Source: a virus (taxonomy: Duplodnaviria > Caudoviricetes). From it: a DNA stretch of 64,000 nucleotides. The position numbers and the translations under genes are program-made. How positions within the stretch are numbered: position 1 is the first letter of the stretch; each line of letters begins with the position of its first letter. Below the pieces are notes generated by a model. That model had not been told where the DNA came from and did no database searches. It was given only the letters and a program-made list of their open reading frames with translations. The stretch is taken from the IMG/VR virus record IMGVR_UViG_3300032295_000548, positions 64,001 to 128,000 of that record. The stretch is one strand, 5' to 3'. This document shows positions 12,069 to 28,985 of this stretch, one piece after another.

Positions 12069-12667
12069 AAGAAGTTCAGCAATTTGAAAGAATCATTGCT
12101 GACTATTACAATGCTCCATACGCTGTTGCTGTAGATTGCTGTACGCATGGTATAGAGTTAGCATTACGCTATACTAAGTTTGATAATGTAACATGCCCAT
12201 CTAACACATATCTAAGCGTTCCTATGACGTTTGAGAAACTAAACTTAGATTGGAGTTTCAATCAACAATATTGGAGTGACTATTATTACATAGGCAACAC
12301 AAATATCATTGATGCCGCAGTGTATTGGAAGAAGAACGGGTACATACCCAACACGTTTATGTGCCTTAGCTTTCAATATCGCAAACATTTGAATGTTGGT
12401 CGTGGTGGTATGATTCTAGTAGAACATGACTATGAATATGTTGCACTAAAGAAAATGAGTTATGATGGTCGTGTACCTGATACTCTCTGGGCCGAACAAG
12501 ACATAGATATGTTGGGATACCATTACTATATGACCCCAGAGACAGCAGCCTTAGGTATGATTAGATTCAATGACGTAAAGGATACTGATCCAAAACAATG
12601 GTCATATAAAGACTACCCTGACATAAGCAAGATGAAGGTTTTCAATGAACAAAATTCAAGTAAGTAA
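12065..12667 (+). CDS. Short DegT/DnrJ/EryC1/StrS-family PLP aminotransferase
   Basis: AVAVDCCTHG, IDAA, SFQYRKHL..GRGG with the PLP lysine; only 200 aa. Confidence 0.8.
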   Translation: MKEVQQFERIIADYYNAPYAVAVDCCTHGIELALRYTKFDNVTCPSNTYLSVPMTFEKLNLDWSFNQQYWSDYYYIGNTNIIDAAVYWKKNGYIPNTFMCLSFQYRKHLNVGRGGMILVEHDYEYVALKKMSYDGRVPDTLWAEQDIDMLGYHYYMTPETAALGMIRFNDVKDTDPKQWSYKDYPDISKMKVFNEQNSSK

Positions 12668-13622
12668 GAATGAGTGGGATCCGCTAAAGAAAGTAATCGT
12701 AGGTCTAGCAGACTTTGCACGTATTCCTAATATGGATAAAAGTTTACGTACAGTAAACTATAGTCACGTTAAAGATGATAAAGACTTGCCGTCTGGTGGC
12801 TTATATCCAGTGCAAGTTATACAAGAAGCGAATGAAGATTTAGATAGATTATCAGAAGAACTAACCAAACTAGGAGTTGAAGTTGTTCGTCCAATGAATC
12901 GCCCCACTGATTACTATAACTATTGTCCTAGAGATTTAGCAACAATCATTGATACAAAGGCAATCGTTGCTCCTATGAGTTTGCAGTCACGTAAAGATGA
13001 TTACAAAAACATTGAGAGTGAATTAAAGAATATCTATTATGTCCCAAACGATCAAGGTGATAGTAACTATAACTTAGGTAGTATCGGTGACAAAGACACA
13101 TTAGCATTGCACGAAATTTATCCAAAGTTTGATGCGGCTAATTTGATTCGTGCTAACGATGACATACTTTATCTTGTTAGTAACTCCGGTAATCGTAAAG
13201 GAGCATATTACTTACAAGAGTTATTAGGTAGTAAGTACAGAGTACATCTATTAGAAGGTGTGTATAGTTACATGCACATTGATAGCACTGTTGCGTTCTT
13301 GCGTGAGGGCCTGATGCTATTGAACCCTGCTAGAATTCCTGATAAAAGCATACTACCTGCTCCCTTTAATACATGGGACGCAATCTATGCCCCCGAGCCA
13401 GTCGATATCGGTCACTTTCATGGCTTCAACAATGCTAGCCCTTGGGTTAGTGTCAATCTACTGTCTATCAATCCTAACTTGGTTGTATTAGAAGAACGGC
13501 AAACTAACCTAGCAAAAGAATTAAATAAGTACGGAATAGAATCATTGATGTTACCAATGAGACATGCTAGAACATTGGGCGGGTGCTTTCACTGTGTAAC
13601 ATTGGATTTGGTTAGAGGATAA
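12645..13622 (+). CDS. Amidinotransferase (glycine / inosamine-phosphate amidinotransferase family)
   Basis: NEWDPLKKVIVG, CPRD, DAAN, HID and C-terminal GGCFHC catalytic Cys. Confidence 0.9.
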   Translation: MNKIQVSKNEWDPLKKVIVGLADFARIPNMDKSLRTVNYSHVKDDKDLPSGGLYPVQVIQEANEDLDRLSEELTKLGVEVVRPMNRPTDYYNYCPRDLATIIDTKAIVAPMSLQSRKDDYKNIESELKNIYYVPNDQGDSNYNLGSIGDKDTLALHEIYPKFDAANLIRANDDILYLVSNSGNRKGAYYLQELLGSKYRVHLLEGVYSYMHIDSTVAFLREGLMLLNPARIPDKSILPAPFNTWDAIYAPEPVDIGHFHGFNNASPWVSVNLLSINPNLVVLEERQTNLAKELNKYGIESLMLPMRHARTLGGCFHCVTLDLVRG

Positions 13623-13624
13623 GA

Positions 13625-15400
13625 ATGAAACAAAAATGGACTAGGGGCCACATCAGTAGATTTTGGAATATAGATGATGTAAAGAAATTAGATTACGTCA
13701 GACAACCTATCATGGATTCTGAAATTGAAGAATGGAAAACTAAAGGCTATGACTATGTAAAAAGTTTTTCAGGGTCTATGTACGACAGTCGTAATCCTAT
13801 GCCGGAGTGGGTAAAAAGGTTTGACAACATATTTGACTTTAAAAATATGACGTATAATTTTTACAAGATGAGCCAACTAGAAATTATGCCAACTCACGTA
13901 GATCACTTTCAAACCTACATGAGGTTATTCAATGTCGAATATGAAAATGCAGTACGAATTCTTGTTATGTTGGAAGACTGGAAGCCTGGACATTATTTAG
14001 AAGTAGATGGTGTAGGCATTGTCAATTGGGTAGCAGGTGATTACTTCATGTGGGACAGCGATGTTCCACATGCCGCTAGTAACATTGGCACAGAAGATAG
14101 ATACACATTACAGATTACAGGTACAAAGATTACCTTTAATGATATTTCTAGTTTACATTGGTACAACATTCCTGATTTAAAAACTAAAAAAGAATCATTG
14201 GATGCACCCATAATGGCTAATATGTATAAGGCCATGAAAAAAACTACTCCCTATTACGTCTATATGTACAACAGGGAAATCACAGAACTAGAAAACATCA
14301 AGCATGATCCTGAAACTGTAAAAAAGTTAAATGAAACAGGAGTCGAGATTTATCTATATGAGCCATTGTGTTCTTATAGATCAACCGATACTCAACAGTA
14401 TCCTCCTCATGGTACAGTTCATTCATTGTTATTTTATAGCGAGTTTCACTATGACCAAGTCCAACGCAAATTTGATTTACGAGCGGTTGAACTAGACAGT
14501 ATTGAGAAATACATCGATAACAACGGGTTGAAGAACGTTACTGTAAAGTCATGTGATTATAATATTCAAAAATTCTACCTATATTATAGAGCAAAAATGC
14601 GTTTGGAAGCAGATGATTTGTTTGTCAAGTTTTTTGACATTAATGAATTTGAACAACTAGACGACAACAAAACCGGAGACTTTACTAAAAAGTTCATCAA
14701 CATGAATTGGCGATATGCCCCGCATCGTCAATTAGTGTCAGCTTATTTGGCTAACTATGAAGTAGATTCGTATCTAACTTGGTACTTTAAATCCGACATG
14801 AGTGTAGTTAGTGTAGAGCCATGGTATAGTATACATCATTGGTTGCAGAAGAATCCAAATGCATTTCAGAAGATGATTACCGGGTTTAATAAATTGAATT
14901 CTAAGTCACCTTGGAACATCGATTTGAAAGTCAAAGAACATACATTGATATCTCATAGCTACTTCAAAAAAATGTTTCCTGTAGGTATGATATTCGATCA
15001 CAAACTTCAAAACTTTGGTGATAACAAAGACCGATTGAAAACAGCATATGCTGATATTTTTGTTGATATTGTGAACGAATCTAGGTTTGCACAACCTACA
15101 GCAAACTACAGTGAAAAAGTTTATAGACCTATGTTCTATAAAAAACCATTTGTATTAGTGGCTCCCCCGCATACGTTGCACTATCTCAAAGAACAAGGGT
15201 TCGAAACATTTGGTGATTTTTGGGATGAATCATATGATGCACTGGAAGATCATGAATCCAGACTCTTTGCTATATTTGATATCATAGATCATATCAACAA
15301 CATGTCAATAGGTGATCTAAAGATTATCTACAATAAAATGTTGCCCATTTTAGAACACAATAAAAAGATTTTGTTAGAAAAATGTCCTAGTAGGTACTGA
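13625..15400 (+). CDS. Fusion: cupin/2OG-Fe(II) oxygenase-like domain + GT-like domain
   Basis: PTHVD...PHAASNIG..RYTLQIT; C-terminal NES..SEKVYRP..KPF..DESYD. Confidence 0.65.
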   Translation: MKQKWTRGHISRFWNIDDVKKLDYVRQPIMDSEIEEWKTKGYDYVKSFSGSMYDSRNPMPEWVKRFDNIFDFKNMTYNFYKMSQLEIMPTHVDHFQTYMRLFNVEYENAVRILVMLEDWKPGHYLEVDGVGIVNWVAGDYFMWDSDVPHAASNIGTEDRYTLQITGTKITFNDISSLHWYNIPDLKTKKESLDAPIMANMYKAMKKTTPYYVYMYNREITELENIKHDPETVKKLNETGVEIYLYEPLCSYRSTDTQQYPPHGTVHSLLFYSEFHYDQVQRKFDLRAVELDSIEKYIDNNGLKNVTVKSCDYNIQKFYLYYRAKMRLEADDLFVKFFDINEFEQLDDNKTGDFTKKFINMNWRYAPHRQLVSAYLANYEVDSYLTWYFKSDMSVVSVEPWYSIHHWLQKNPNAFQKMITGFNKLNSKSPWNIDLKVKEHTLISHSYFKKMFPVGMIFDHKLQNFGDNKDRLKTAYADIFVDIVNESRFAQPTANYSEKVYRPMFYKKPFVLVAPPHTLHYLKEQGFETFGDFWDESYDALEDHESRLFAIFDIIDHINNMSIGDLKIIYNKMLPILEHNKKILLEKCPSRY

Positions 15401-15402
15401 GT

Positions 15403-15410
15403 TATAAATA
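15403..15410 (+). promoter_or_regulatory. T4-type late promoter TATAAATA
   Basis: Exact T4 late consensus. TAAATA cores also lie intergenically at 6570, 28051, 34124, 39749, 40777, 42862, 44423, 46521 and 63209. Confidence 0.65.
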
Positions 15411-15432
15411 CTTAGGATTTAAAGGGCAAACT

Positions 15433-15531
15433 ATGTTTATTATCAGATTTTTCAAAAACTTAATCAAAGAATACAAATACCGCAAGCGCATCAAAGAACT
15501 ACGTAAACGTGATCCATTTATCTATAAGTGA
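15433..15531 (+). CDS. 32-aa basic peptide MFIIRFFKNLIKEYKYRKRIKELRKRDPFIYK (not in ORF track)
   Basis: Follows the late promoter and an AAGGG SD; fills the gap up to the carbamoyltransferase start. Confidence 0.7.
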   Translation: MFIIRFFKNLIKEYKYRKRIKELRKRDPFIYK

Positions 15532-15533
15532 TT

Positions 15534-17012
15534 ATGAACTACGTAGGAATCAGTAACGGCTTCCACGATGCCGGCATCTCTGTCGTTGGTCCCAATGGTG
15601 ATATCTTATTTGCAGGTCACAGCGAACGTTATAGCAAGCACAAACATGATAAAGACTTGTGCTTGTCCTTAGCACAGGATGCAAAAGCAAATATACAGGG
15701 TGAATCTGAGATTCACTACTACGAACGCCCTTTAGTAACAGCATTACGTCAGTTACGTGCGGCGCAACCTGTTAAGTTTGAAACAGCAAAATCACGCATT
15801 GGTAAAGAAATACTAAAAGAGTTTAATAATCCTAAGGTCGTTACTCATGAGCATCACTTGAGCCATGCGGCAGCAGGATTTCAAACAAGCCCATATGACG
15901 AAGCTACTGTCGTAATCATTGATGCGATTGGTGAGTTTGATTGTATCAGTATTTGGAATGCTTGGTATGACAACAAAGGTTATGCACAATACAAAAAGTT
16001 ATGGTCTAAAAAATACCCACACAGCATTGGTTTATATTACAGTGCAATGACTCAACATGTGGGCCTAAAGCCATTGGACGAAGAATATATTCTAATGGGT
16101 ATGGCTGCATATGGACAACCCATATACTTCAACAAGATTGAAGGGCAACTGTTAGAAAGTTCTACTAACTTAGAGTTCAAAGAGAACCTACATATTGGTG
16201 TACCTGAAGGATTCTTAGAAGGTGCTAACGAAATGGACGTTGCCGCAAGCGCACAAGCACTTGTAGAATACCTTATCAACACCGTTATGGGCAAGGCTCG
16301 TATGTTAGGTAAGAGTCGTAATTTAGTATATGGTGGTGGTGTAGCATTGAATTGTCTTGCTAATAGAAACTTAGGAGACTATTTCAGTGAGATGTGGATT
16401 GTTCCTAACCCCGGTGATTGCGGATCAAGCTTAGGTGCAGCCGCATTGGGTTACGGTAAGAAATTAAACTGGGTCGATGCTTTCTTAGGACACAACATTC
16501 CAGGCAATTATCCCAGTAATCGTATCATTGACGAACTAGTTAAGACTAAAATAGTAGGTGTAGCCTCAGGTCGTGCAGAGTTCGGTCCACGTGCATTGGG
16601 TAATAGGTCATTGCTTGCAGACCCCAGAGGTGATACAATAAAGGATACTGTAAATGAAATTAAACGCAGACAAAAATTCAGACCATTTGCGCCCATTATT
16701 TTGGAGGAGTATGTTCATGATTATTTTGATATGCCTCGTAACTGGCGTGATAGTAGGTATATGCAAGTCATCGCTACTTGCCGGCATCCTGACTTATTTC
16801 CTGCTATCGTTCACGCTGACGGCACTAGTCGGGTACAGACTGTTCCAAAAGATGGAAGTGGAGTCAGAGAACTCCTAGAAAAGTGGTATGTCTTGACTGG
16901 ATGTCCTATACTGTTAAACACCTCGCTTAATATCAGAGGCGAGCCAATGGTAAATGATAGGTCTGATGCTGATAGATTTGAAACCCTGTACAATGTTAAA
17001 GTGATATCGTAA
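15534..17012 (+). CDS. O-carbamoyltransferase (NodU/CmcH/TobZ family)
   Basis: HDAG, ERYS..KH, HHLSHAA, DAIGE, GGVALNC, EFGPRALGNRS, FRPFAP, LLNTSLN. Confidence 0.95.
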   Translation: MNYVGISNGFHDAGISVVGPNGDILFAGHSERYSKHKHDKDLCLSLAQDAKANIQGESEIHYYERPLVTALRQLRAAQPVKFETAKSRIGKEILKEFNNPKVVTHEHHLSHAAAGFQTSPYDEATVVIIDAIGEFDCISIWNAWYDNKGYAQYKKLWSKKYPHSIGLYYSAMTQHVGLKPLDEEYILMGMAAYGQPIYFNKIEGQLLESSTNLEFKENLHIGVPEGFLEGANEMDVAASAQALVEYLINTVMGKARMLGKSRNLVYGGGVALNCLANRNLGDYFSEMWIVPNPGDCGSSLGAAALGYGKKLNWVDAFLGHNIPGNYPSNRIIDELVKTKIVGVASGRAEFGPRALGNRSLLADPRGDTIKDTVNEIKRRQKFRPFAPIILEEYVHDYFDMPRNWRDSRYMQVIATCRHPDLFPAIVHADGTSRVQTVPKDGSGVRELLEKWYVLTGCPILLNTSLNIRGEPMVNDRSDADRFETLYNVKVIS

Positions 17013-20000
17013 ATGCTAAGAGATGTTTTTTATTTCGGAAATAAACCTAATGTTCACCCAAGAGAGCAACATGCAACAAGTTTAACAGACGCTAGAAGAA
17101 AAGCGTCAACAGAACATTTTTGGATTATTAACGAGTTCTGCGACTATACTAATTTTGATTGGGATTTTGATTTTGAATTCCTACCAGACGCAGACGTATG
17201 GGCAGAAGAACACAACAACGTATGGCCTAGCTATCATCAAAAGGATAGCGGTACATGGCTATGTCCAAAGAAACTAAGTGACGTTATTGTTTATCGTGCA
17301 GATGTTGATTCACTGAAACGAAAGAATAGCATCAATGACAACTGGAAGTTGTTAGATAATATTGATGTTACTAAGTGGGACTTTAGTTGGCATCCTGATC
17401 CAAGTGACCCTCCCTACATTTATAAGTGGGGTTCAAAGTATGCACCTGTTGAATTAAAATCGTGCATTGAATATCATGCTCCGGACGCTACTCAAATAAA
17501 ATACATGAACACTACAGTAGAATTGCTTCCTAATTGGGATTGCATTGTAGAGGTTCAGAAAGTAAATTACAATCATTGGGATATGAGTTGGAGACCAGAC
17601 CCACTCGATCCTCCCTTCATTTACGTATGGGGTAACAAATACATTGATGGACGTTTACGTTCAACACTAGAGTATCATGTGCCTGGAGCTACTGAAAAGA
17701 AATACATGAATGAGTTAGTACCTGTACTTCCTGAATGGGATCGTTGGGTACTAATACATGACATTGACAAAACATCATTTGACTTCTCTTGGAGACCAGA
17801 TCCAAGAGAGCCTGATTTTATATATGTGTTTGGTAATGAACAATATGAAGGTGGTGTAATGCCTACGATTGAATATCGTATGCCTGATGCTACTGAGAGA
17901 AAATATCTTCATGATATGAAGGCTAGACTTTCTCCTCATCCTGAAAAATTCGAACACTTAGAGAAAGCAGATAATATTGATTACAGTTGGGTTCCAGACC
18001 CAACTGCACCTCCTTATATCTATGTTTGGGGCAATCAATGGAACAAGCCAGAAGATAAGATTAGTATTCAATACGTAGTTGAAGGTGCAACAGAATACAA
18101 ATACATGGAAGAACGTTCAAAACGTAAACCATGCATGGATAATTGGGAAGTACCTGATGATGTTGATACTACTGGATTTGATTTTTCTTGGGAACCTAGT
18201 CCTGCTGATCCTGCATACATCTATGAGTTTGGTACTCAGTGGCAAAAGACAGGTGGACCTCGTTATGTAGTAGAAGGTGCCACAGAAATCAAATATGTAA
18301 GTACAATGAAAGTAACTAAGTTAGCAGACAAATCTAAGTTTGCTATCTTAGGCAATTTAAAAATTGCTAACTTTGATTATTCATGGCATCCTGACAGCAC
18401 AGAAGAACCATACATTTATGTCTTTGGTAATAACTTCTATCCGGGCGAAATTATGCCCACAATTGAATATGCAATGTCAGGCGCTACTAAAATCAAATAT
18501 GTAGAAAACGCAGTTGCAACATTAGGTATTGATAAAATTAATTGGGAAGTACCCAACAATGTTGATGCGTCATCGGTAGATTTTAGTTGGAAGCCTAATC
18601 CTAAAGACCCTCCCTACATCTATCAGTATGGTACACAACATCAAAAATCAGGAGGACCTCGTTACGTAGTTCCTGAGGCAACTGAAGTAAAGTATGTTGA
18701 TGTAAAAGCTAAAGCACTGCCACAACAAGACAAATTTACAGTGTTAGATGGTATCGTAGTTGACGAGTTTGATTACTCATGGCATCCAGATGATACCGAA
18801 GAAGCGTACATCTATCAATTCGGAAATAATCAGTATCCTGCTGAAATTATGCCCACTGTTGAGTATGCAATGCCTGGTGCTACTCAGATCAAATATGTAC
18901 ACGAAGTAGTAGCCAAGCTTGGTGTTGATATGACTAACTGGACAACACCTGATAACATTGATGCTACTGGTTTTGATTATAGTTGGAAGCCAAATCCCAA
19001 AGACCCCGCTTATATCTATGAGTTTGGTACTCAATGGCAAAAGACAGGTGGACCTCGTTACTTAGTAGAGGGCGCTGATGAAGTTAAGTATGTAACTACT
19101 CAAAGTGTTAAGGTTTTACCTACAACAGACAACTGGACTATTCCTACTAATTGCGATGTAACTGGCTTTGACTTTAGCTGGCATCCAGATGCAACTAGCC
19201 CACCGTATATCTATCACTTTGCTACTCAATGGGCATTGACAGGTGGACCTGTATATACAATGGATGGTGCTACTGAAATCAAGTACGTAGAACATCCAAG
19301 TGCAGTTGCACTTCCTAATCGTGATAACTGGGAAATACCCAAACACATAGATAGTGATGCGTTTGACTTCTCATGGCATCCATACGTAGAAGATCAACCT
19401 TACGTTTATATCTTTGGCACACAACATCAAAAGACAGGTGGACCTAAGTACATAACACCCGGTGTAATACCTACAAGCCCAGTCAAATATATTGACACAC
19501 GTATCATACGTGCGATACGTAAACCTAGCAAGAAAAACTTTGCAGTATTAAACAATTACAAAATTAAAGATTTTGATTGGTCATGGCATCCAGACGAAAC
19601 CGACGAGCCATACATCTATGTGTTTGGTAATACTCAGTATCCTGCTGAAATCATGCCGACTATTGAGTACGTAGTTCCTGGAGCAACACAGATTAAGTAT
19701 GTGACTGATGTTGTAGCAACATTAGACATTGACATGGCAAATTGGGAAGTTTCTAACAATACAGATGTAAGTAGTTTTGACTTTAGTTGGAAACCTAACC
19801 CTAAAGACCCACCTTTCATATATCAATTTGGTACTCAACATCAAAAGACAGGTGGACCTCGTTACGTAGTGGCTGATGCAGATGAAGTAAAGTATGTGAC
19901 TACTCAACAAGCAGTAGCACTACCTACTACTGAAAATTGGACTGTGCCCAATTATGTAGACACATCAGGATTCGATTTTAGTTGGCATCCAGATGACACA

Positions 20001-23000
20001 AGCCCTCCATATATCTATCACTTTGCTACTCAGTGGGCACTGACAGGTGGTCCTGTGTATACAGTACAAGGTGCTAATGAAACAAAGTATTTGGAAGAAC
20101 CATGTGCAGTTGCTTTGGAGAATAAAGAAAACTGGGAAATACCTAAAGATATCGATGAAGCTTTATTTGACTTCTCATGGCATCCATACGTGGAAGATCA
20201 GCCTTATGTATATGTGTTTGGTACGCAACATCAAAAGACAGGCGGACCTAAGTACGTAACACCAGGTGTTATCCCTTCAAGCCCAATCAAATACATTGAC
20301 ACACGTATTCTTAAAGCAGTAAAGAAGCCTAGTAAGAAAAACTTTGCAATACTGAATAACTACAAGATTAAAGATTTTGATTGGTCATGGCATCCAGACG
20401 AAACCGACGAGCCATACATCTATGTGTTTGGTAACAATCAATACTCGGCTGAGATTATGCCTACGATTGAGTACGTTGTGCCGGGCGCAAAGCAGATCAA
20501 ATACGTCAGTGATGTTATAGCAACGTTAGATGTTGACATGACTAACTGGGAAATTCCCGATAACATTGATGCTGAAGGCTTTGACTTTAGTTGGAAACCT
20601 AATCCTAAAGACCCGCCTTTCATATATCAATTTGGTACTCAATGGCAAAAGACAGGCGGCCCTCGCTATGTTGTGCCAGGTGCTGACGAAGTAAAGTATG
20701 TAACTACTCAACAAGTTAAATCATTGTCATCAATGACCAATTGGACTATTCCAACGCATATTGATACAACTGGATTTGATTTTAGTTGGCACCCGGATGA
20801 CACAAGCCCTCCTTATATCTATCACTTTGCCACTCAATGGGCACTGACAGGTGGACCTGTATACACTGTTGAGGGTGCAACGGAAACAAAATACTTAGAA
20901 GAACCTAGTGCAATTGCATTAGTAAATAAAGAAAATTGGGAAATACCTTCTGACATTGATGATAGTGAGTTTGATTTTTCTTGGCATCCATATGTAGAAG
21001 ATCAGCCTTATGTGTATGTCTTTGGTACTCAATGGCAAAAGACTGGTGGACCTAAGTACATAACACCTGGTGTTATTCCTTCAAGTCCTATCAAGTATAT
21101 TGATACACGTATTCTTAAGGCTAAGAAATTGGCTAATAAAAAGAACTTTGCCATACTCAATAATTATAAGATTAAAGATTTTGATTGGTCATGGCATCCA
21201 GACGAAACTGATGAGCCATATATCTATGTGTTCGGTAACAATCAATACTCGGCTGAGATTATGCCAACTATTGAATATACAGTTCCGGGTGCAAAACAAA
21301 TCAAGTACGTACATGATGTAGTAGCAACGTTAGATGTTGACATGTCAAATTGGGAAGTGCCTAAGAATGTAGATTCTACTGGATTTGACTTCAGTTGGAA
21401 ACCTAACCCTAAAGATCCTGCATATATCTATGAGTTTGGTACTCAGTGGCAAAAGACAGGTGGCCCTCGCTATGTTGTGCCTGACGCAGAAGAAGTTAAG
21501 TACGTATCTACACAACAAGTCAAAGTACTTGCTAATCATGACAATTGGACTATACCTCCTAACATCGATGTTAGTGATTTTGATTTTAGCTGGCACCCTG
21601 ATGCTACAAGTCCACCATATATCTATCACTTTGCCACTCAGTGGGCATTGAGCGGTGGCCCGATCTACAAGATGGATAAGGCTATTGCTACTAAGTATAT
21701 GGATCAGCCTGTTGCTAAAGCATTGCCTAATAAAACTAATTGGGAGATACCGGATGATATTGATGCAGTAGATTTTGATTTCTCATGGCATCCGTATGTT
21801 GAAGATGATCCGTTTGTTTATCAGTTCGGTACTCAATGGCAAAAGACAGGTGGACCTCGTTATGTCACACCGGGTGCAAAGAGAAGTTTACCAGTCAAGT
21901 ACATTGACACTCGTATTCTTAAATCTAAAAAGTTACCTAACAAAGATAAGTTTACTGTATTAAACAATTTAACAATTGCATCGTTTGATTGGTCATGGCA
22001 TCCAGATGAGACTGACGGTGAATTTGTATATGTGTTTGGCAACACACAGTATCCTGCTGAAGTTATGCCTACGATTGAATATCGTTCAAGTCCCTACGCA
22101 GAAAAGATAAAGTATATCAACGATTTTAAGGCTGTACTAGCAACGGATCTTAAGGATTGGGACATACCTACTAACATTGATGTTAGTGAGTTTGATTTTA
22201 GTTGGAAACCAAATCCAAATGACCCTCCATTCATTTATCAGTTCGGTACTCAATGGCAAAAGACAGGAGGCCCTCGTTATAAAGTAGAAGGCGCAACCGA
22301 AGTCAAATATGTTGAAGGGTCTAAAGCAAAAGCAATTGCTAGTAAAAAACAATGGATAGTACCGACAACTATTGATAGTGCAAACTTTGACTACAGTTGG
22401 CATCCAGACGAAACTGAAGAACTTTACGTTTATCAATTTGGTACTCAATGGCAAAAGACAGGTGGCCCTCGTTATATAACGTCTGGATCAACTAGTGATA
22501 CTCCTGTAAAATACTGTGATGATGTTAAAGCAAGACAATTGCCTAACAAAAAGAATTTTAACTGTTTAGTAGAGCATGAGATAAAAGACTTTGACTATTC
22601 ATGGCATCCAGATGATACTGATAAGCCATACATTTATGTGTTTGGTAATAAACAGTATTCTGCTGAAATTATGCCTACAATAGAATATAAAGTGGCAGGG
22701 GCAGTTCAGGTCAAGTACGTACATGATGTTGTAGCTACACTGAACAACAACAAAAAAAACTGGGAGATACCTAAAGATATCACTACTGAGAGTTTTGACT
22801 TTAGCTGGTTGCCTCACCCTAAGGATCCTCCTTATGTATATCAATTTGGTACACAACATCAAAAGACAGGTGGACCTCGTTATGTAGTTCCTACAGCTAC
22901 TGATATAAAATACATCGATGGCTTGGTTGCTAAACGCAAACAAGCTATGACCAACTGGGTAGTACCTGAAGGAGTTGATGTATCTAATTTTGATTTTAGT

Positions 23001-25154
23001 TGGCATCCTGATGAACTAGCACCACCGTACATTTATCAGTTCGGTACAGTTGCTGACGACAAAGACGGTCCTAAATATGTTCCATCTATCAATAACGGTG
23101 AAGTAGTATTCAAGCAAAGAATAAGCAAACCAATACAAGATGACATAATCGAAGAAGTTTTCATTGGACAATACTATATTGAGACTACACTAGAAGATTT
23201 GGTTAACAAACACCCTGATGAAATTTTCTGGGCATTGAATTCTAGTATTGATTACACAAACTTTGACTTCACTTGGAGGCCTGAGATTATTCATATTGCA
23301 TGGGAATCTTCATACGTTAATGTATTTGGTTCTCCTGACAGTCCATTGACACAAACATACTTTGTCAATGCAAAATCATACTTGGCTGGAAATAAAGACT
23401 TTAAGTTTGTTGAGAACGTAAAATTAAGTGAAGAATACCTATCAACTCTTTTTGTTAAGCCTGACATGTTTTTTGTTGACAGAGGAAACAGTGAATCATC
23501 TGCAAGATTTGAAATGCTGAAAACTAAGTTTGGAAACATTCAAAAGACACGATATCTAAACAGTTGGGTCGATACCATCAACCGTTGTATCAATCGTAGT
23601 ACAACTGAATTATGCTGGATACTGAACAGTGAATTAGATTACTCTGATTTTGACTTTAACTATTATCCTAACCCTTGGCAGATGAAGATGGTTCATGTGT
23701 TTGGTACTCAATGGAGTCATTGGGGAACTACGTTCATGGTTAATCGTGAAGCATTCTCTACTGACACCAAGTACATTAAGATTATAGAACACTTGAGTAA
23801 TCTTAACTTTGTCAAGACTCGTACTGCAAAGGCAACAAATGTCTTGTATGACGTATACTACATAGATCATGGCAACGCTACTAACTTGCCAAACGCAAAT
23901 GTTGTACCATATGATACTGATTATCTAACTACATTTAAGAACATACTATCTAAGTTGCCTGAAAAGAAAGAGCATTACATTTGGATAGCAAGTACAGTGT
24001 GTGATTATGACAGTTTTGATTTCACGTACATTTGTGATCCATTCGCACGTGAACAATTGCATGTGTTCCCAAGTAGCAGTCAGAAGTTTGGTGATACATT
24101 TTTAGTGAATGTGAACAAGTTACGTGAGTTAGTTAGTGATATGGAGTCATTGAAAGACTATGACAAAATTAACTTCAACCAACATCAGCGTACTAAACGT
24201 TTGACCCCTCCTACAATTGTTACAGAGTTTGATTCTCATGTTGCTACTGTAATGCAAGATTTTGATTTCCCCTACGCTGTATTTGTCACTGAGGATAACA
24301 AAGATATAGTTGCAGTTGAAGAAGAACCAATGAGTCTATGGGATCAAGAATCTAAAAACATTCTTGTTACCAGTACTGGTGGCACACGTATCATCGTTCC
24401 AAAAGAAGCAAAGCAATATGTTGAGACACAGTTGTATGACTATCCGTACATCAAAACTGCGCCTCGTTTAGCTAAGAGTAATCCATTAGACATTGTTTAC
24501 TTGAGCAATGGTGAAAGTTGTGCAGATGAAAATTATGAACATCTATTGAAAGCGACAAAGGGTCTTCCTAACAAAATCGTTCGTGTAGATGGTGTTAATG
24601 GTCGTGTTGAAGCATATCATGCCGCGGCAAAAGCAAGTAACACGCCTTGGATGTTCACTGTGTTTGCGAAATTGAAAGTCAACACTAAGTTTGACTTTAA
24701 CTGGCAACCAGATAGACTGCAAATTCCTAAGCACTATATGTTCTTAGCAAAGAACCCTGTCAATGGATTAATTTATGGTCACCAAGGTATGATTGCGTAC
24801 AACAAAGAAATGACATTGAATAATCCAGGTTACGGTCTAGACTTTACATTAGATAGTCCTCACGAAACTATTGAATTGTTATCAGGTATAGCAACATACA
24901 ACACAGACGAATGGTCAACATGGCGTACTGCATTCCGTGAAGTTATCAAGTTGAAGAAAGAAAATTCTGAAATTAGCTTGAAGCGTTTAGAAGCATGGAT
25001 GACTAAAGCTGAAGGTGATTTTGCAGAATATTCGATAGACGGTGCTATAGATGGTATCGCATACTACAATGAAGTAGAAGGCAAAACAGATAAACTACGC
25101 TTGAGTTACGAATGGGCGTGGTTGCGTGAAAGATTTGACAGGAAGCACAAGTGA
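17013..25154 (+). CDS. 2713-aa tandem-repeat protein with C-terminal glycosyltransferase-A-like domain(s)
   Basis: About 29 repeats of about 67 aa (FDFSWxP..P.YxYxFG); C-terminal DIVYLSNGE..RVDGV.GR..NPVNGL.YG domain. Confidence 0.85.
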   Translation: MLRDVFYFGNKPNVHPREQHATSLTDARRKASTEHFWIINEFCDYTNFDWDFDFEFLPDADVWAEEHNNVWPSYHQKDSGTWLCPKKLSDVIVYRADVDSLKRKNSINDNWKLLDNIDVTKWDFSWHPDPSDPPYIYKWGSKYAPVELKSCIEYHAPDATQIKYMNTTVELLPNWDCIVEVQKVNYNHWDMSWRPDPLDPPFIYVWGNKYIDGRLRSTLEYHVPGATEKKYMNELVPVLPEWDRWVLIHDIDKTSFDFSWRPDPREPDFIYVFGNEQYEGGVMPTIEYRMPDATERKYLHDMKARLSPHPEKFEHLEKADNIDYSWVPDPTAPPYIYVWGNQWNKPEDKISIQYVVEGATEYKYMEERSKRKPCMDNWEVPDDVDTTGFDFSWEPSPADPAYIYEFGTQWQKTGGPRYVVEGATEIKYVSTMKVTKLADKSKFAILGNLKIANFDYSWHPDSTEEPYIYVFGNNFYPGEIMPTIEYAMSGATKIKYVENAVATLGIDKINWEVPNNVDASSVDFSWKPNPKDPPYIYQYGTQHQKSGGPRYVVPEATEVKYVDVKAKALPQQDKFTVLDGIVVDEFDYSWHPDDTEEAYIYQFGNNQYPAEIMPTVEYAMPGATQIKYVHEVVAKLGVDMTNWTTPDNIDATGFDYSWKPNPKDPAYIYEFGTQWQKTGGPRYLVEGADEVKYVTTQSVKVLPTTDNWTIPTNCDVTGFDFSWHPDATSPPYIYHFATQWALTGGPVYTMDGATEIKYVEHPSAVALPNRDNWEIPKHIDSDAFDFSWHPYVEDQPYVYIFGTQHQKTGGPKYITPGVIPTSPVKYIDTRIIRAIRKPSKKNFAVLNNYKIKDFDWSWHPDETDEPYIYVFGNTQYPAEIMPTIEYVVPGATQIKYVTDVVATLDIDMANWEVSNNTDVSSFDFSWKPNPKDPPFIYQFGTQHQKTGGPRYVVADADEVKYVTTQQAVALPTTENWTVPNYVDTSGFDFSWHPDDTSPPYIYHFATQWALTGGPVYTVQGANETKYLEEPCAVALENKENWEIPKDIDEALFDFSWHPYVEDQPYVYVFGTQHQKTGGPKYVTPGVIPSSPIKYIDTRILKAVKKPSKKNFAILNNYKIKDFDWSWHPDETDEPYIYVFGNNQYSAEIMPTIEYVVPGAKQIKYVSDVIATLDVDMTNWEIPDNIDAEGFDFSWKPNPKDPPFIYQFGTQWQKTGGPRYVVPGADEVKYVTTQQVKSLSSMTNWTIPTHIDTTGFDFSWHPDDTSPPYIYHFATQWALTGGPVYTVEGATETKYLEEPSAIALVNKENWEIPSDIDDSEFDFSWHPYVEDQPYVYVFGTQWQKTGGPKYITPGVIPSSPIKYIDTRILKAKKLANKKNFAILNNYKIKDFDWSWHPDETDEPYIYVFGNNQYSAEIMPTIEYTVPGAKQIKYVHDVVATLDVDMSNWEVPKNVDSTGFDFSWKPNPKDPAYIYEFGTQWQKTGGPRYVVPDAEEVKYVSTQQVKVLANHDNWTIPPNIDVSDFDFSWHPDATSPPYIYHFATQWALSGGPIYKMDKAIATKYMDQPVAKALPNKTNWEIPDDIDAVDFDFSWHPYVEDDPFVYQFGTQWQKTGGPRYVTPGAKRSLPVKYIDTRILKSKKLPNKDKFTVLNNLTIASFDWSWHPDETDGEFVYVFGNTQYPAEVMPTIEYRSSPYAEKIKYINDFKAVLATDLKDWDIPTNIDVSEFDFSWKPNPNDPPFIYQFGTQWQKTGGPRYKVEGATEVKYVEGSKAKAIASKKQWIVPTTIDSANFDYSWHPDETEELYVYQFGTQWQKTGGPRYITSGSTSDTPVKYCDDVKARQLPNKKNFNCLVEHEIKDFDYSWHPDDTDKPYIYVFGNKQYSAEIMPTIEYKVAGAVQVKYVHDVVATLNNNKKNWEIPKDITTESFDFSWLPHPKDPPYVYQFGTQHQKTGGPRYVVPTATDIKYIDGLVAKRKQAMTNWVVPEGVDVSNFDFSWHPDELAPPYIYQFGTVADDKDGPKYVPSINNGEVVFKQRISKPIQDDIIEEVFIGQYYIETTLEDLVNKHPDEIFWALNSSIDYTNFDFTWRPEIIHIAWESSYVNVFGSPDSPLTQTYFVNAKSYLAGNKDFKFVENVKLSEEYLSTLFVKPDMFFVDRGNSESSARFEMLKTKFGNIQKTRYLNSWVDTINRCINRSTTELCWILNSELDYSDFDFNYYPNPWQMKMVHVFGTQWSHWGTTFMVNREAFSTDTKYIKIIEHLSNLNFVKTRTAKATNVLYDVYYIDHGNATNLPNANVVPYDTDYLTTFKNILSKLPEKKEHYIWIASTVCDYDSFDFTYICDPFAREQLHVFPSSSQKFGDTFLVNVNKLRELVSDMESLKDYDKINFNQHQRTKRLTPPTIVTEFDSHVATVMQDFDFPYAVFVTEDNKDIVAVEEEPMSLWDQESKNILVTSTGGTRIIVPKEAKQYVETQLYDYPYIKTAPRLAKSNPLDIVYLSNGESCADENYEHLLKATKGLPNKIVRVDGVNGRVEAYHAAAKASNTPWMFTVFAKLKVNTKFDFNWQPDRLQIPKHYMFLAKNPVNGLIYGHQGMIAYNKEMTLNNPGYGLDFTLDSPHETIELLSGIATYNTDEWSTWRTAFREVIKLKKENSEISLKRLEAWMTKAEGDFAEYSIDGAIDGIAYYNEVEGKTDKLRLSYEWAWLRERFDRKHK
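18740..21960 (+). repeat. Higher-order 804-bp (268-aa, four-unit) intragenic tandem duplication, about 4 copies
   Basis: 68-bp exact match 19563-19630 = 20367-20434; third copy starts at 21171 (period 804). Confidence 0.9.
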
Positions 25155-26206
25155 AATATATTACACATAACCAATGGTCAGGTGACCATAAGTTTGTTGA
25201 GTTCTACAATCGTGTAATCAGTGAAGATTTTGACAAGATCATAATCTTCTGTCAGAACGAATGGGAATGGTATAACCACGAACCCGAACATTGGCAGTTA
25301 CTACAAGATTATTGTAAGAAAATCAACAAGACAATTCATATAGTTGTTGGTGCCGCAGAAAAAGATTTCCCGGTACACATTGATAACGTTGACGTTTCAT
25401 ATTGGCCTACTTCATGGTTTGGTAGAACGTACATAAATTCAATGAGGATGAACAAAAGTCTATTCATAGATCCAAATGTTACCGTTGATTATGAACATCA
25501 CTTCTTTAACTTTAATCACAGACCAAAATCACATAGATGCAAAGTTATAGACCAACTAGCAAAGCATGATTTATTCAAGCATGGTGCTGTATCAATACAT
25601 GGTACAGAAGTTTATTCAGGAACAACGCATGAGGGATGGGAAATATTTCCATGGAAGCATTTTAAATACAAACCCATGTCATTGGATACTGCTGAATTCA
25701 CCAAAGATGCACACGGGCAGATGTTCGTAGTTACAGATATACATAGAAAGTCATTTTGTCAACTAGTTAGTGAAACAACAGATAGGTCATACTTTATAAG
25801 TGAAAAAACTATAATGCCCTTGTGTGCAGGTAAACCGTTTTTAGTAGCATCAAGACAAGGCTTTCACCAATTGCTGAAAGACATGGGGTTTGAGTTATAC
25901 GATGAAATCTTTGATTACTCATTTGATTCTATTGTTGATGAAGATAGACGTTACGAAATGCTAGTAGATAATTACAAAAGATTGTGTGAAATACCATTGA
26001 ATGAACTACCGGCATTAACAAAACAAATACATGAAAAGTTATTGCACAATAAGAATAGAGTAAAAGAGATTGTATATGAGCGAGGCAACTATCCGATGTT
26101 GTTGCAAGAGGTATTGAAGCATTACAAGACTACCAAAGAAGAAGTAGATCACTTGTTTTGTTCGTTGTATGAAGAAGAGGAAATGTTTGCATATCATGAG
26201 TGGTAA
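25151..26206 (+). CDS. Glycosyltransferase-like paralogue
   Basis: NHRPKSHR, SET..ISEKT.MP..GKPF, GFELYDEIFDYSFD. Confidence 0.55.
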   Translation: MKYITHNQWSGDHKFVEFYNRVISEDFDKIIIFCQNEWEWYNHEPEHWQLLQDYCKKINKTIHIVVGAAEKDFPVHIDNVDVSYWPTSWFGRTYINSMRMNKSLFIDPNVTVDYEHHFFNFNHRPKSHRCKVIDQLAKHDLFKHGAVSIHGTEVYSGTTHEGWEIFPWKHFKYKPMSLDTAEFTKDAHGQMFVVTDIHRKSFCQLVSETTDRSYFISEKTIMPLCAGKPFLVASRQGFHQLLKDMGFELYDEIFDYSFDSIVDEDRRYEMLVDNYKRLCEIPLNELPALTKQIHEKLLHNKNRVKEIVYERGNYPMLLQEVLKHYKTTKEEVDHLFCSLYEEEEMFAYHEW

Positions 26207-27236
26207 AAATTTAAACTACATTGGTCATAACCAATGGAATGGCCTTAACTTTCAAAATTTTTATGAGAAAGTGATTAACGGCAACTATGACAAAGTAATA
26301 TTATTTTCACAGAATGAGTGGGCACATCACCATCACAATCCTGAATATTTTCCTTTGCTACAAGAGCATATGAAAAGAATAGGTAAGCCCCTACATATCA
26401 TTACTTCGGCACATAAACATTTGTACCCAGTTGAACTAGAAAATACTCAAGTACATTGGTATGATACATATTGGATGTGCAAAACGTATGGACAATTATT
26501 ACACGTTAGTAAAGGTAATAAGATATCAATTGATCCCTACGAAACGGTAGATTACAAATATCATTATCTTTCTATGAACCACAGGCCCCATCTGCATCGT
26601 TGTTTGTTAATTGATTTGTTGGCTAAACACGATTTGATGAAGTATGGTGCTATATCATTACACAATGCACCAGTACCTGAACTGTATCAATGGAAATATT
26701 TTGATTACAAACCACTAATATTAGATCAACAATACTCCACTGAAAAAAATTATAACCTTGTACCTGACCAATATTATGAATCGTTCGTACAACTGATAAG
26801 TGAAGCTTCAGGTGATACTATAATGATGTCTGAAAAAACAGCAATACCGTTATTGTTAGGTAAACCTTTCTTAGTTGCTAGTCAGATGCATTTCCATAAG
26901 TTCTTGAAAGGACTAGGATTTGAGCTATATGATGAAATATTTGACTACAGTTTTGATGACGAACCGAACGAAGAAAAAAGATATGAAATGCTTTTGGAAA
27001 ACTTCAAGAGATTGTGTCAAATACCGTTAAACGAACTAACTCAATTACAACAACGCATAGCTAACAAAGTATTGTTTAATAAGAAACATGCCAAATCATT
27101 GGTATTTGACACTACAACATGCCCAGAACTAGCTATGGAAGTTATCAATTACTACAAAGATACCGGAACTATCATAGACAAGCACTTGATAGATGACTAC
27201 GAAAACTGTATAATGTACAAAGACCATGAGATTTGA
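26196..27236 (+). CDS. Glycosyltransferase-like paralogue (tandem duplicate of the preceding gene)
   Basis: Collinear similarity to the 25151 ORF along its length; start moved to the ATG at 26196. Confidence 0.55.
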   Translation: MSGKNLNYIGHNQWNGLNFQNFYEKVINGNYDKVILFSQNEWAHHHHNPEYFPLLQEHMKRIGKPLHIITSAHKHLYPVELENTQVHWYDTYWMCKTYGQLLHVSKGNKISIDPYETVDYKYHYLSMNHRPHLHRCLLIDLLAKHDLMKYGAISLHNAPVPELYQWKYFDYKPLILDQQYSTEKNYNLVPDQYYESFVQLISEASGDTIMMSEKTAIPLLLGKPFLVASQMHFHKFLKGLGFELYDEIFDYSFDDEPNEEKRYEMLLENFKRLCQIPLNELTQLQQRIANKVLFNKKHAKSLVFDTTTCPELAMEVINYYKDTGTIIDKHLIDDYENCIMYKDHEI

Positions 27237-28103: not shown

Positions 28104-28985
28104 ATGAAGAAAATCGTAATGGCAACATTATTTATGGCAGCTACAGGTTTAGCTAGTGCTCAAGTATCCCTATCAGGAAAGGTCAGCGAGTTCGTTGATT
28201 CTTCTAAGGTGGCCGGCAACAAAAGCACTCAGTTGGTTACAGCACCAACTAGTAACTTTGCTTTGTCTGTCAATGAAAAATTGGGCGGTGGTCTAACTGC
28301 ACGTGCTGTAGTCGAAACTTCACTAAGTGGTAACACCATTGATGGTGTTGGTACTAAGTTGGGTGATCGTCAAGGTACTGTAGGTCTGTCAAGCAAGCTT
28401 GGTAGCGTTGATCTAGGTCGCAATGTTCATAGCCATTTCTTAGCAATCACAAACAACGATACTTTCAGTACATTGTTTGGTAGTGTTGCAGGTGATGTTC
28501 ACAATCTACGTAATCTACGTTTAGGTGATGCAGTGTTCGTTAACGTAACTCCTGTTAAAAACTTAGCAGTTGCTTATGAGCGTTCACAAGTTGCTGTTGG
28601 CCAAGAGGCTACAGTAGTTGCAGGTTCTACTAAAGTAATGGGTGTGAATGCATCTGTTGCTCGTTTCGAACAAGGTACTGAAAAGAGTACTGTTGTTGGA
28701 TTGAACACAACCATTCTAGGTAACAAGGTTACATATACTCATAGCGATGACCAAGGTCTAGTAAAGAGTAAGGGCGACTTGGTTGGTGTTGCACGTGATT
28801 TTGGTGCTATCACTGCTAAGGCAAGCTATGGTACTACAAACACAGACGTTAAAGCATATGCATTAGGTGCTGATTATAATTTCAGCAAGCGTACTGCATT
28901 GACTGTTGCATATCGCAATGTCAACAAGACAGGTTCAGCACATGACGTTGAACAAGTAGGTGTAGGTTTGACACATCGTTTCTGA
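28104..28985 (+). CDS. Gram-negative general porin
   Basis: Signal peptide (ASA-Q), amphipathic beta strands, LGADYNFSKRT, C-terminal GVGLTHRF with terminal Phe. Confidence 0.9.
   Translation: MKKIVMATLFMAATGLASAQVSLSGKVSEFVDSSKVAGNKSTQLVTAPTSNFALSVNEKLGGGLTARAVVETSLSGNTIDGVGTKLGDRQGTVGLSSKLGSVDLGRNVHSHFLAITNNDTFSTLFGSVAGDVHNLRNLRLGDAVFVNVTPVKNLAVAYERSQVAVGQEATVVAGSTKVMGVNASVARFEQGTEKSTVVGLNTTILGNKVTYTHSDDQGLVKSKGDLVGVARDFGAITAKASYGTTNTDVKAYALGADYNFSKRTALTVAYRNVNKTGSAHDVEQVGVGLTHRF

Follow-up and report, generated by a model that had tools for sequence, protein, structure and literature searches.

The 2,713-residue giant protein encoded by an uncultured phage of ~350 kb is best explained as a soluble, acidic, multi-module protein all of whose parts descend from a single ancestral GT-A (nucleotide-sugar transferase) domain. 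Its 29 tandem units repeat a stretch of ~65 residues lying after the DxD position of that fold. The nucleotide-binding half survives to differing degrees in the N-terminal module and in each of four C-terminal modules, of which only the last (M4) is complete. The reading we favour, with a probability of roughly 0.45, is a soluble glycosyltransferase-like pathway protein whose rod of units would serve as a length-variable spacer or ruler.

The giant gene and its repeat array

In the window, the whole 64,000-nucleotide stretch analysed, the giant ORF (P0001) occupies 17013..25154 on the plus strand and encodes 2713 aa without an internal stop. A motif scan and a search with an HMM trained on units of this same protein delineate an array of 29 tandem units of ~65-70 aa each, spanning aa 110-2044 (17340..23144, plus strand). 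Each of these strong units scores at E 1e-23 to 1e-32 in the motif scan and HMM search, which also found weaker copies at aa ~2073, 2202 and 2557. The unit consensus, NW..P...D...FDFSW.P....P.IY.FG...GP.Y..GA...KY, agrees with that proposed in the initial annotation, and the claim of about 29 units in four subtypes with an 804-nt ABCD period was borne out as well. Along the protein the subtypes run 1, 2, 3, 4, b, AB, (ABCD)x4, AB-d, AB, X. Repeat search places the four in-phase ABCD super-repeats at 18732..21947 (plus strand) with a period of exactly 804 nt and block starts at 18732, 19536, 20340 and 21144. Tandem Repeats Finder, run with a longest period of 500, reported no repeat in the gene. 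Among exact repeats in the gene, a 68-nt tract at 19563..19630 (plus strand), identical to 20367-20434, is the longest, as had been noted earlier; this tract may be a gene-conversion patch.

Invariant Ser, Lys and Tyr positions are present in every unit. Trp, Tyr, Phe and Pro are abundant in the array (aromatic content 15%), which is acidic, with a pI of 4.85 and a net charge of about -90. No hydrophobic segment was found in the protein, the maximum 19-residue Kyte-Doolittle mean being 0.8. The charge bears on the idea that the protein is a DNA-modifying glycosyltransferase tracking along phage DNA. Phage GT-A enzymes that glycosylate DNA do exist, near ThyA-like genes (bioRxiv 10.1101/2023.12.21.572611), and a ThyA gene lies 10 kb downstream of the giant gene. 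However, that gene scores as a bona fide thymidylate synthase (354 bits), JGT-type active-site motifs as described in the same work are absent from the M4 alignment, and with so strongly acidic an array we reject a DNA-binding reading. We regard DNA modification as scarcely credible.

AF2 modelling of a five-unit block gave an all-beta structure (pLDDT 95.4, pTM 0.78) in which the units are predicted to stack as a well-ordered array. That this array would be rigid is suggested by the pTM alone. The five-unit model had no clear PDB match, and its Foldseek neighbours were weak, namely rod-like tandem beta domains (cadherins, S-layer, SHIRT).

Age and turnover of the copies

In-phase ABCD blocks share 70-80% nucleotide and 70-83% amino acid identity. 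Between them, identity is 47-60% at third codon positions versus 80-92% at first and second positions, and the copies differ by a dS of 1.1-1.9 with a dN/dS of 0.08-0.17. These block identities, the codon-position bias and the low dN/dS establish that the array is not a chance pattern. With dS in this range, the duplications within this genome are not recent. The initial annotation had read the period and the shared tract as signs of recent unequal crossing-over, which does not hold: synonymous sites are saturated, and the units of the nearest relative mostly map position for position. Turnover of the array is visible only between genomes, not within this one. An assembly artefact, a caveat attached to that annotation, is not likely, given that no exact repeat is longer than 68 nt and that 78 other viral contigs carry intact orthologues.

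GT-A origin of the repeat unit

Judged from profile comparison, the unit is homologous to the half of the GT-A fold that comes after the DxD position. The unit profile matched C-terminal module 2 in hhalign at 98% (E 8e-14), and a C-terminal profile matched the N-terminal module plus every unit. The unit model gave 20 weak VIA matches, all 20 of them to GT-A or nucleotidyltransferase folds, and the alignments place one unit on the second half of that fold. It had been stated earlier that the repeat belongs to no named family. This stands in so far as searches of Pfam, PHROGs, NCBIfam and PDB sequences with the entire protein, with the unit profile and with the C-terminal region gave only chance-level matches, but the unit relates to the GT-A fold and is no orphan. 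Nor could the protein be assigned to a sequence-defined GT family, as no Pfam, NCBIfam or PHROG match at E <= 0.1-1 was found for the whole protein or its distant relatives. Both the GT-A-fragment nature of the unit and the GT-A-like modules at the two ends had been missed in the initial annotation. The array is a clear natural case of an internal fragment of a common enzyme fold turned autonomous repeat, and the all-beta architecture it builds, predicted with confidence, is new and lacks a clear counterpart in the PDB.

Descent from the acceptor-side half of the GT-A fold also raises the possibility of a multivalent glycan-binding track. Here the acceptor-side surface of each unit would bind one sugar or polymer repeat, and the array would hold a long glycan or glycoprotein for tailoring by the C-terminal modules or by neighbouring enzymes, as a processivity clamp or template, with the four subtypes reading a four-part periodicity. 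The richness of the unit in Trp, Tyr, Phe and Pro and the low dN/dS between copies fit such a role, and the conservation of subtype-specific motifs across lineages is more than a mere spacer would seem to need. Yet neither unit nor array matched a known carbohydrate-binding module or lectin repeat in Pfam, PDB sequences, Foldseek or VIA, though a unit could bind sugar without such a match, and the conserved aromatics may just build the core and the inter-unit interfaces. Moreover, some lineages have expanded one subtype only (long runs of unit type 2) or AB pairs only, which argues against a fixed four-part template. We consider the track unlikely.

N-terminal and C-terminal modules

The N-terminal module (aa 1-109; 17013..17339, plus strand) is identified by profile match and conservation as a short GT-A-like module with an FDW/FDF segment of its own. 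The C-terminal profile A2 matched it over aa 15-87 (E 6e-11), and it is globular and among the best-conserved parts of the protein in a comparison of 210 orthologues. At the other end, AF2, VIA and hhalign delineate three truncated GT-A / nucleotidyltransferase-like modules, M1-M3 (aa ~2045-2488; 23145..24476, plus strand), each of which ends with a unit-like FDF..P segment. They are followed by M4 (aa 2489-2713; 24477..25151, plus strand), a complete GT-A-like domain with a helical tail according to VIA and a representative search. Intermediates of the conversion, half-modules and a full module, persist in the same chain.

The C-terminal 664 aa were modelled by AF2 with a pLDDT of 93.8 and a pTM of 0.82 and fold as tandem GT-A-like domains, with the Rossmann-like alpha/beta/alpha sandwich of the GT-A fold found by AF2, Foldseek and VIA alike. 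Foldseek retrieved the tandem-GT-A enzymes K4CP (1e-4), Mimivirus R699 and LH3, as well as PcManGT and MpgS at a probability of 0.99 and single-domain GT-A enzymes at 0.97-0.99. VIA gave Z scores of 9-10.8 over 120-140 aligned residues in two parts of the C-terminal model, 99-228 and 440-580. Model residues 99-228 aligned with MobA, IspD and GT-A enzymes (Z 10-10.8), and M4 with B4GALNT1, GnT-I, PBCV-1 A64R and hyaluronan and cellulose synthases (Z 9-10).

A canonical DxD (or ExD), the metal-binding motif expected after the fourth strand, is absent from M4, and M1-M3 retain only a single conserved Asp-Tyr. This weakens the case for a canonical metal-dependent GT, not that for the GT-A fold, and it counts against the explanation that we favour. 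One GT-A domain of LH3 is said to lack the DxD. Among the many invariant polar residues of M4 is Lys2553, at or adjoining the DxD position (F-A-K-L); 111 of 113 representatives have Lys there. An invariant Lys at this place may mark a possible metal-independent GT-A clade. A stand-alone M4 paralogue of the same genome (L083:1495-2448; 29% identity, E 2e-11), encoded in a neighbouring sugar island, has D-G-D at the aligned place instead of F-A-K-L. M4 is the family's most widespread part, with 853 clusters at 50% identity in the representative search; one homologue forms a fusion with a radical SAM domain, and other relatives are small and enzyme-like.

Family spread and length variation

Full-length orthologues combine the N-terminal module, 1-39 units and a ~670-aa C-terminal region in 837-3330 aa. 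The unit number shifts fast among related phages while both ends stay conserved: orthologues with the same terminal regions carry from 1 to 38-39 units, in line with the length variability proposed before. Close relatives differ in unit number and order, as in pairs with 30 versus 29 units at 98% carbamoyltransferase identity, 21 versus 22 units in differing order at 92-95%, and 9 versus 4 units at 92%. Comparison of related loci revealed no clear link of unit counts to island content, and this, like the lack of a membrane-association element, counts against the favoured explanation. A search for the family found 341 proteins of 1492-4748 aa and > 3,700 shorter ones. The family is abundant, with a fixed island position, and is without a name, a Pfam model or a cultured representative. 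A tblastn search of 50,697 phage records returned a single match, to the last module (gp348 of the Ralstonia phage RsoM2USA, annotated as hypothetical; 28.5%, E 2e-9), and the repeats were found in none of these cultured phages. A narrow pattern-based scan of GTDB genomes with the M4 segment found no relative. Cluster members are annotated 'hypothetical' only; an 'acyltransferase' name on one MAG entry is without Pfam support.

Rapid change in unit number between conserved ends is a hallmark of the Periscope proteins (SHIRT, Rib), in which a tandem-repeat rod of varying copy number between close relatives carries functional end domains (PMC8201768). The giant protein could accordingly be imagined as a virion-attached fibre in which the N-terminal module anchors the chain and the rod projects the C-terminal GT-A-like modules to the host envelope. 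These modules would be glycan-binding pseudo-enzymes or surface-modifying enzymes, and unit number would tune how far the fibre extends through capsule or O-antigen. In favour of this, the rod combines an acidic character with solubility and, as modelled, folds as a monomer, and its weak Foldseek neighbours are themselves rod-like. Periscope repeats, however, are near-identical in DNA, unlike the 70-80% identity and dS above 1 seen here, and Periscope proteins are wall-anchored and bacterial, whereas the phage protein has no signal peptide or anchor and a different fold. Receptor-binding tips are usually hypervariable, but the C-terminal tip is conserved (64-69% identity). The giant protein had no significant structural PHROG match; a BFVD search returned two uncharacterised family members only, and all listed fibre proteins had E above 0.5. 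Finally, the gene is set among, and abuts, biosynthetic enzyme genes, and the relatives of M4 are small enzyme-like proteins together with the radical SAM fusion. We rate a fibre as unlikely.

Neighbouring genes

The giant gene is directly preceded by a carbamoyltransferase gene of the NodU/CmcH/TobZ type (15528..17012, plus strand; Pfam Carbam_trans_N 6e-37, Carbam_trans_C 6e-48), the true start of which is probably the ATG at 15534. The giant gene, described before as translationally coupled on both sides, abuts or overlaps both neighbours: its ATG at 17013 comes straight after the carbamoyltransferase's TAA, and a GTG at 25151 overlaps the giant gene's stop as GTGA. This GTG opens a 351-aa ORF (25151..26206, plus strand), which is followed by a paralogue with 45% identity (26169..27236, plus strand) present only in some related loci. 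Neither ORF has a family match. The initial annotation had placed the giant gene between the carbamoyltransferase and GT paralogues; the position and the two paralogous ORFs are correct, but nothing in Pfam, NCBIfam, PHROGs, PDB sequences or hhalign against the C-terminal profile identified them as glycosyltransferases.

Orthologues occupy a conserved sugar-tailoring island in contigs of jumbo phages (~350 kb); in this window the island covers 12065-27236. Across related loci (n=78) the order is B12-rSAM, (DegT, two ORFs), carbamoyltransferase, giant gene; in most of these loci no gene separates the last two. A single copy of TATAAATA, the T4-type late promoter, is present in the window, just 5' of the carbamoyltransferase gene; with only 3 occurrences in 139 kb, and presence in 11/58 related loci, it is too rare to be usable as a timing signal. 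A scan for sigma-70 promoters and terminators gave counts at chance level.

The adjoining ORF 13625-15400 has a weak match to Asp/Asn beta-hydroxylase (cupin), which lies under Pfam's cut-off. It enters into a further alternative, in which the island enzymes would use the array as their acceptor, decorating a conserved site in every unit of this folded 'proteoglycan core', and the virion would display the product or be released together with it. The Ser, Lys and Tyr positions that are invariant in all units would suit such a self-glycosylated carrier, and the tandem GT-A matches include the collagen-modifying LH3 and R699. The case is purely circumstantial, though, and the invariant residues are equally accounted for by folding, so that we hold a carrier to be very improbable.

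Proposed role and comparison with known systems

In the explanation that we favour, the giant protein would work alongside the carbamoyltransferase in the sugar-tailoring island, either as an enzyme resembling glycosyltransferases or as a scaffold for enzymes. M4 would bind or transfer an activated sugar without a metal-binding DxD, with the invariant Lys2553 in its place, and the array would be a rigid spacer fixing the distance between the N-terminal and C-terminal modules. This spacer might fix glycan chain length, as the coiled coils in WbbB and WbdD do, or it might determine how far the catalytic end extends over a long substrate. Conserved gene order, abutting and overlapping codons, the radical SAM-M4 fusion, the D-G-D paralogue in the sugar island and the many invariant polar residues of M4, Lys2553 among them, support the pathway role. 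Variable length with constant ends, a dN/dS of 0.08-0.17 and the retention of unit subtypes across lineages also speak for the explanation as a whole. Since M1-M3 and the N-terminal module are truncated, all modules could be non-catalytic.

In WbbB (Klebsiella O12 / Raoultella) a coiled-coil ruler separates a terminating GT at the N terminus from polymerising GTs at the C terminus, and the length of this spacer sets the distance between active sites and hence glycan length (PMC11231755). In layout it resembles the giant protein with its transferase-like ends, carrying an N-terminal transferase module, a long spacer and C-terminal tandem GT modules on one chain. The spacers of WbbB and of WbdD (E. 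coli O9a) are coiled coils, whereas the spacer modelled here is an all-beta array of GT-A fragments, and Foldseek and VIA found no sequence or fold likeness between them. WbbB and WbdD have catalytic modules at both ends, the N-terminal enzyme being a complete GT99 or a kinase-methyltransferase; here both ends of the array appear GT-A-like, with the N-terminal one truncated. At 109 aa it is too small for a full terminating enzyme, unlike in WbbB, which counts against the explanation that we favour. Finally, WbbB and WbdD are membrane-associated bacterial O-antigen enzymes and the giant protein a soluble phage protein. A bolder version, in which a single polypeptide combines polymerase, ruler and capping module, the beta rod replaces the O-antigen coiled coil and unit number (1-39) sets the length of a carbamoylated, heavily tailored glycan made during infection, seems to us decidedly unlikely. 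If true, it would be a genetically 'dialable' ruler evolving by unit gain and loss. Were the rod a ruler or glycan track of any kind, the family would offer a natural graded series (1 to 39 units) for polymer-length measurement by enzymes.

The tandem GT-A enzymes E. coli K4 chondroitin polymerase (2z86), Pasteurella heparosan synthase 2, human LH3 and Mimivirus R699 likewise have several GT-A domains per chain. For the C-terminal region Foldseek ranks such enzymes highest, at an identity of 8-10% and with low whole-model TM-scores, but unlike the giant protein they have neither a repeat array nor truncated half-modules. The genomic setting resembles that described for pelagimyophages and cyanomyophages, whose host recognition cluster is a variable island by the tail-fibre genes that brings together glycosyltransferases, enzymes of sugar-nucleotide metabolism and cassettes with radical SAM genes (PMC7029224). 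Those phages are T4-like, aquatic and 130-165 kb in size, compared with ~350 kb here, and their cluster is hypervariable whereas the island order here is conserved; no giant repeat protein is described in that work. The stand-alone M4-like proteins, that is, the paralogue from the same genome and gp348 of RsoM2USA, are 233-317 aa long and carry no repeats.

Organization of the repeat array

The giant gene (17013–25154, + strand) encodes a protein of 2713 aa. A motif scan combined with an HMM built from the protein's own units identified 29 strong units spanning aa 110–2044, each with an E-value of 1e-23 to 1e-32, as well as weaker copies in the C-terminal region. The unit consensus and the signatures of subtypes A, B, C and D given in the initial annotation proved correct. 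By subtype, the order is 1, 2, 3, 4, b, AB, (ABCD)x4, AB-d, AB, X. The four ABCD blocks (+ strand) start at 18732, 19536, 20340 and 21144 and are in phase, with the previously reported period of exactly 804 nt; the longest exact repeat, at 19563 and 20367, measures 68 nt, also as reported.

These features had been attributed to recent unequal crossing-over. In-phase blocks share 70–80% identity in DNA and 70–83% in protein, with dS of 1.1–1.9 and dN/dS of 0.08–0.17, values that indicate real coding sequence under purifying selection and copies that are old rather than recent. Such copies are too diverged for an assembler to collapse, and we therefore ruled out an assembly artefact, whose probability is negligible. 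The 68-nt identity stands alone and resembles a patch of local conversion.

Relationship of the unit to the GT-A fold

Neither the whole protein, the unit profile nor the C-terminal region had sequence matches in Pfam, PHROG, NCBIfam or PDB, in agreement with the initial annotation, which did not recognize the repeat. The last 664 aa were modeled by AlphaFold2 (alignment with 118 diverse homologues) with a pLDDT of 93.8 and a pTM of 0.82. In Foldseek, this model matched the tandem-GT-A enzymes K4 chondroitin polymerase (1e-4), Mimivirus R699 and LH3, and single GT-A enzymes with a probability of 0.97–0.99. Using VIA-align, model residues 99–228 aligned to MobA, IspD and GT-A folds (Z 10–10.8, 122–127 residues), and residues 440–580 and beyond to the GT-A enzymes PBCV-1 A64R, GnT-I, B4GALNT1, hyaluronan synthase and cellulose synthase (Z 9–10).

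In a profile–profile comparison, unit positions 7–46 aligned with the FDF..P..VFG segment of module 2 (98% probability, E 8e-14), and within the phage's own genome the C-terminal profile matched all units and the N module (E 1e-4 to 1e-11). The five-unit block ABCDA was predicted from a 150-row alignment to form an all-beta array (pLDDT 95.4, pTM 0.78). Against the PDB this model had no Foldseek match (best E 0.9) and nothing above Z 3.3 in VIA; all 20 of the 20 weak VIA matches were GT-A or nucleotidyltransferase folds, each placing one unit on the second half of the domain. On these profile matches and predicted folds, the unit is a piece of the GT-A fold seen in the C-terminal region. BFVD contains only two relatives, both uncharacterized proteins from uncultured phages.

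Taken together, the sequence and fold results indicate an N module (aa 1–109), the 29 units, three truncated C-terminal modules (M1–M3) and M4 (aa 2489–2713), a GT-A-like module that is complete and carries a helical tail. The protein has no hydrophobic segment and is GT-A-derived, multi-module and soluble. With a pI of 4.85 and a net charge of about −90, its array is acidic; this charge disfavors a DNA glycosyltransferase, which we consider very improbable.

M4 and its altered DxD position

A stand-alone 317-aa paralogue of M4 without a Pfam match is encoded ~10 kb before the window (L083:1495-2448, equivalent to G000:C1:53410-54363). Its D-G-D aligns where M4 of the giant protein has F-A-K-L. 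Lys2553 is kept in 111 of 113 diverse representatives and many further polar residues of M4 are near-invariant, a pattern that suggests an active or binding site that has been altered but conserved, and not one in decay. In some metal-independent GT-A enzymes, basic residues stand in for the DxD motif.

Family size and variation in unit number

A word-based search recovered 341 family proteins of 1492–4748 aa along with over 3,775 shorter ones, none with an informative name, and an exhaustive search with the C-terminal region yielded 853 clusters at 50% identity. Of all parts of the protein, M4 is found most widely, frequently as a ~300-aa protein. The metagenomic protein P0389 (625 aa) is a fusion of an M4 homologue (residues 77–296) with a radical SAM domain (355–515), which links M4 to radical SAM sugar tailoring. 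A 323-aa M4 homologue from a cyanobacterial Fischerella MAG (P0349, MCX7592717.1) is labeled '1-acyl-sn-glycerol-3-phosphate acyltransferase', a name without Pfam support; this is probably either a mis-annotation or the result of binning phage sequence with the MAG.

In 210 full-length orthologues, a constant N module and a constant C region of ~670 aa flank arrays of 1 to 38 units (39 by a looser HMM count), so the protein is length-variable as first proposed. The four-unit block is present one to seven times in many lineages, and other lineages have expanded AB pairs or long stretches of unit type 2, which indicates that expansions were independent and did not have to proceed in steps of four units. 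Subtype signatures are kept across lineages, and most units of the nearest relative correspond position for position. Close relatives with 98% identical carbamoyltransferases have 30 versus 29 units; at 92–95% identity we found 21 versus 22 units in a different order, and at 92%, 9 versus 4.

The beta array is predicted to be well ordered and varies in unit number between conserved ends. The protein might instead serve as a virion-attached, periscope-like fibre (cf. PMC8201768), which we regard as unlikely, or, with somewhat lower probability still, as a multivalent glycan-binding track.

Genomic context and proposed function

The carbamoyltransferase TAA immediately precedes the ATG at 17013, and the downstream ORF begins at GTG 25151 within GTGA, so the giant gene is joined to both neighbors as originally seen. 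That ORF is the first of two tandem paralogues (25151–27236; 45% identity to each other), of which related loci carry one, both or neither. Their paralogy was correctly noted; for their designation as glycosyltransferases, searches of Pfam, PHROGs, NCBIfam and PDB sequences returned no match, and neither could be placed in a family. Gene order is conserved across 78 related viral loci: B12-radical SAM, (DegT, ORF, ORF), carbamoyltransferase and giant gene, sometimes followed by one or both 350-aa ORFs, then by porin, CobS-like and CobT-like genes. Linkage of the giant gene to sugar-tailoring genes is fixed.

We favor, with a probability of about 0.45, a glycosyltransferase-like pathway protein whose rod is a distance-setting spacer. 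The protein would act in the island's glycan pathway, M4 would bind or transfer an activated sugar without DxD, and the rod would set a distance. That the protein is instead a self-glycosylated carrier seems rather improbable. For the spacer reading the nearest working analogy, in function only, is WbbB/WbdD, where a spacer between terminating and polymerizing modules fixes glycan length (PMC11231755); in contrast to those proteins, this one has a spacer other than a coiled coil, a small N module and no membrane element. Both the GT-A fold family and the concept of spacers that vary in length are already known. The new variation on them is a rod that arose by amplification of part of the enzyme's own fold, in a very common jumbo-phage family without a name.

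Source phage and other features of the window

The window covers bases 64001–128000 of a 139-kb IMG/VR viral contig with a CheckV completeness of 40%, which implies a phage genome of ~350 kb; contigs of relatives reach 360–364 kb. T4-type genes are present (large terminase, gp32-like SSB, UvsX, helicase). The phage also encodes a Gram-negative porin (28104–28985; Porin_4, 2e-18), which is syntenic across many of the related loci and offers a possible hint that the host is a proteobacterium.

A 1045-aa fusion (6598–9735) joins a UDP-glucose/GDP-mannose dehydrogenase-like region to a small C-terminal methyltransferase domain; in several related loci these are separate ORFs. ORF 13625–15400 (591 aa) has a weak, sub-threshold N-terminal match to Asp/Asn beta-hydroxylase (cupin; E 0.0011) and may be a protein or sugar hydroxylase of the island. 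Between it and the carbamoyltransferase lies a small, very basic ORF of 32 codons with a plausible ribosome-binding site (15433–15531). Its stop overlaps the listed carbamoyltransferase start, GTG 15528; ATG 15534 is the more likely start. The gap before the carbamoyltransferase also contains TATAAATA (15403–15410), the sole copy in the 64-kb window against 6.7 expected by chance. The 139-kb contig has only 3 copies, too few for a general late promoter. The closest related loci (L003, L004, L005 and L058) retain the motif, which was seen in 11 of 58 loci overall.
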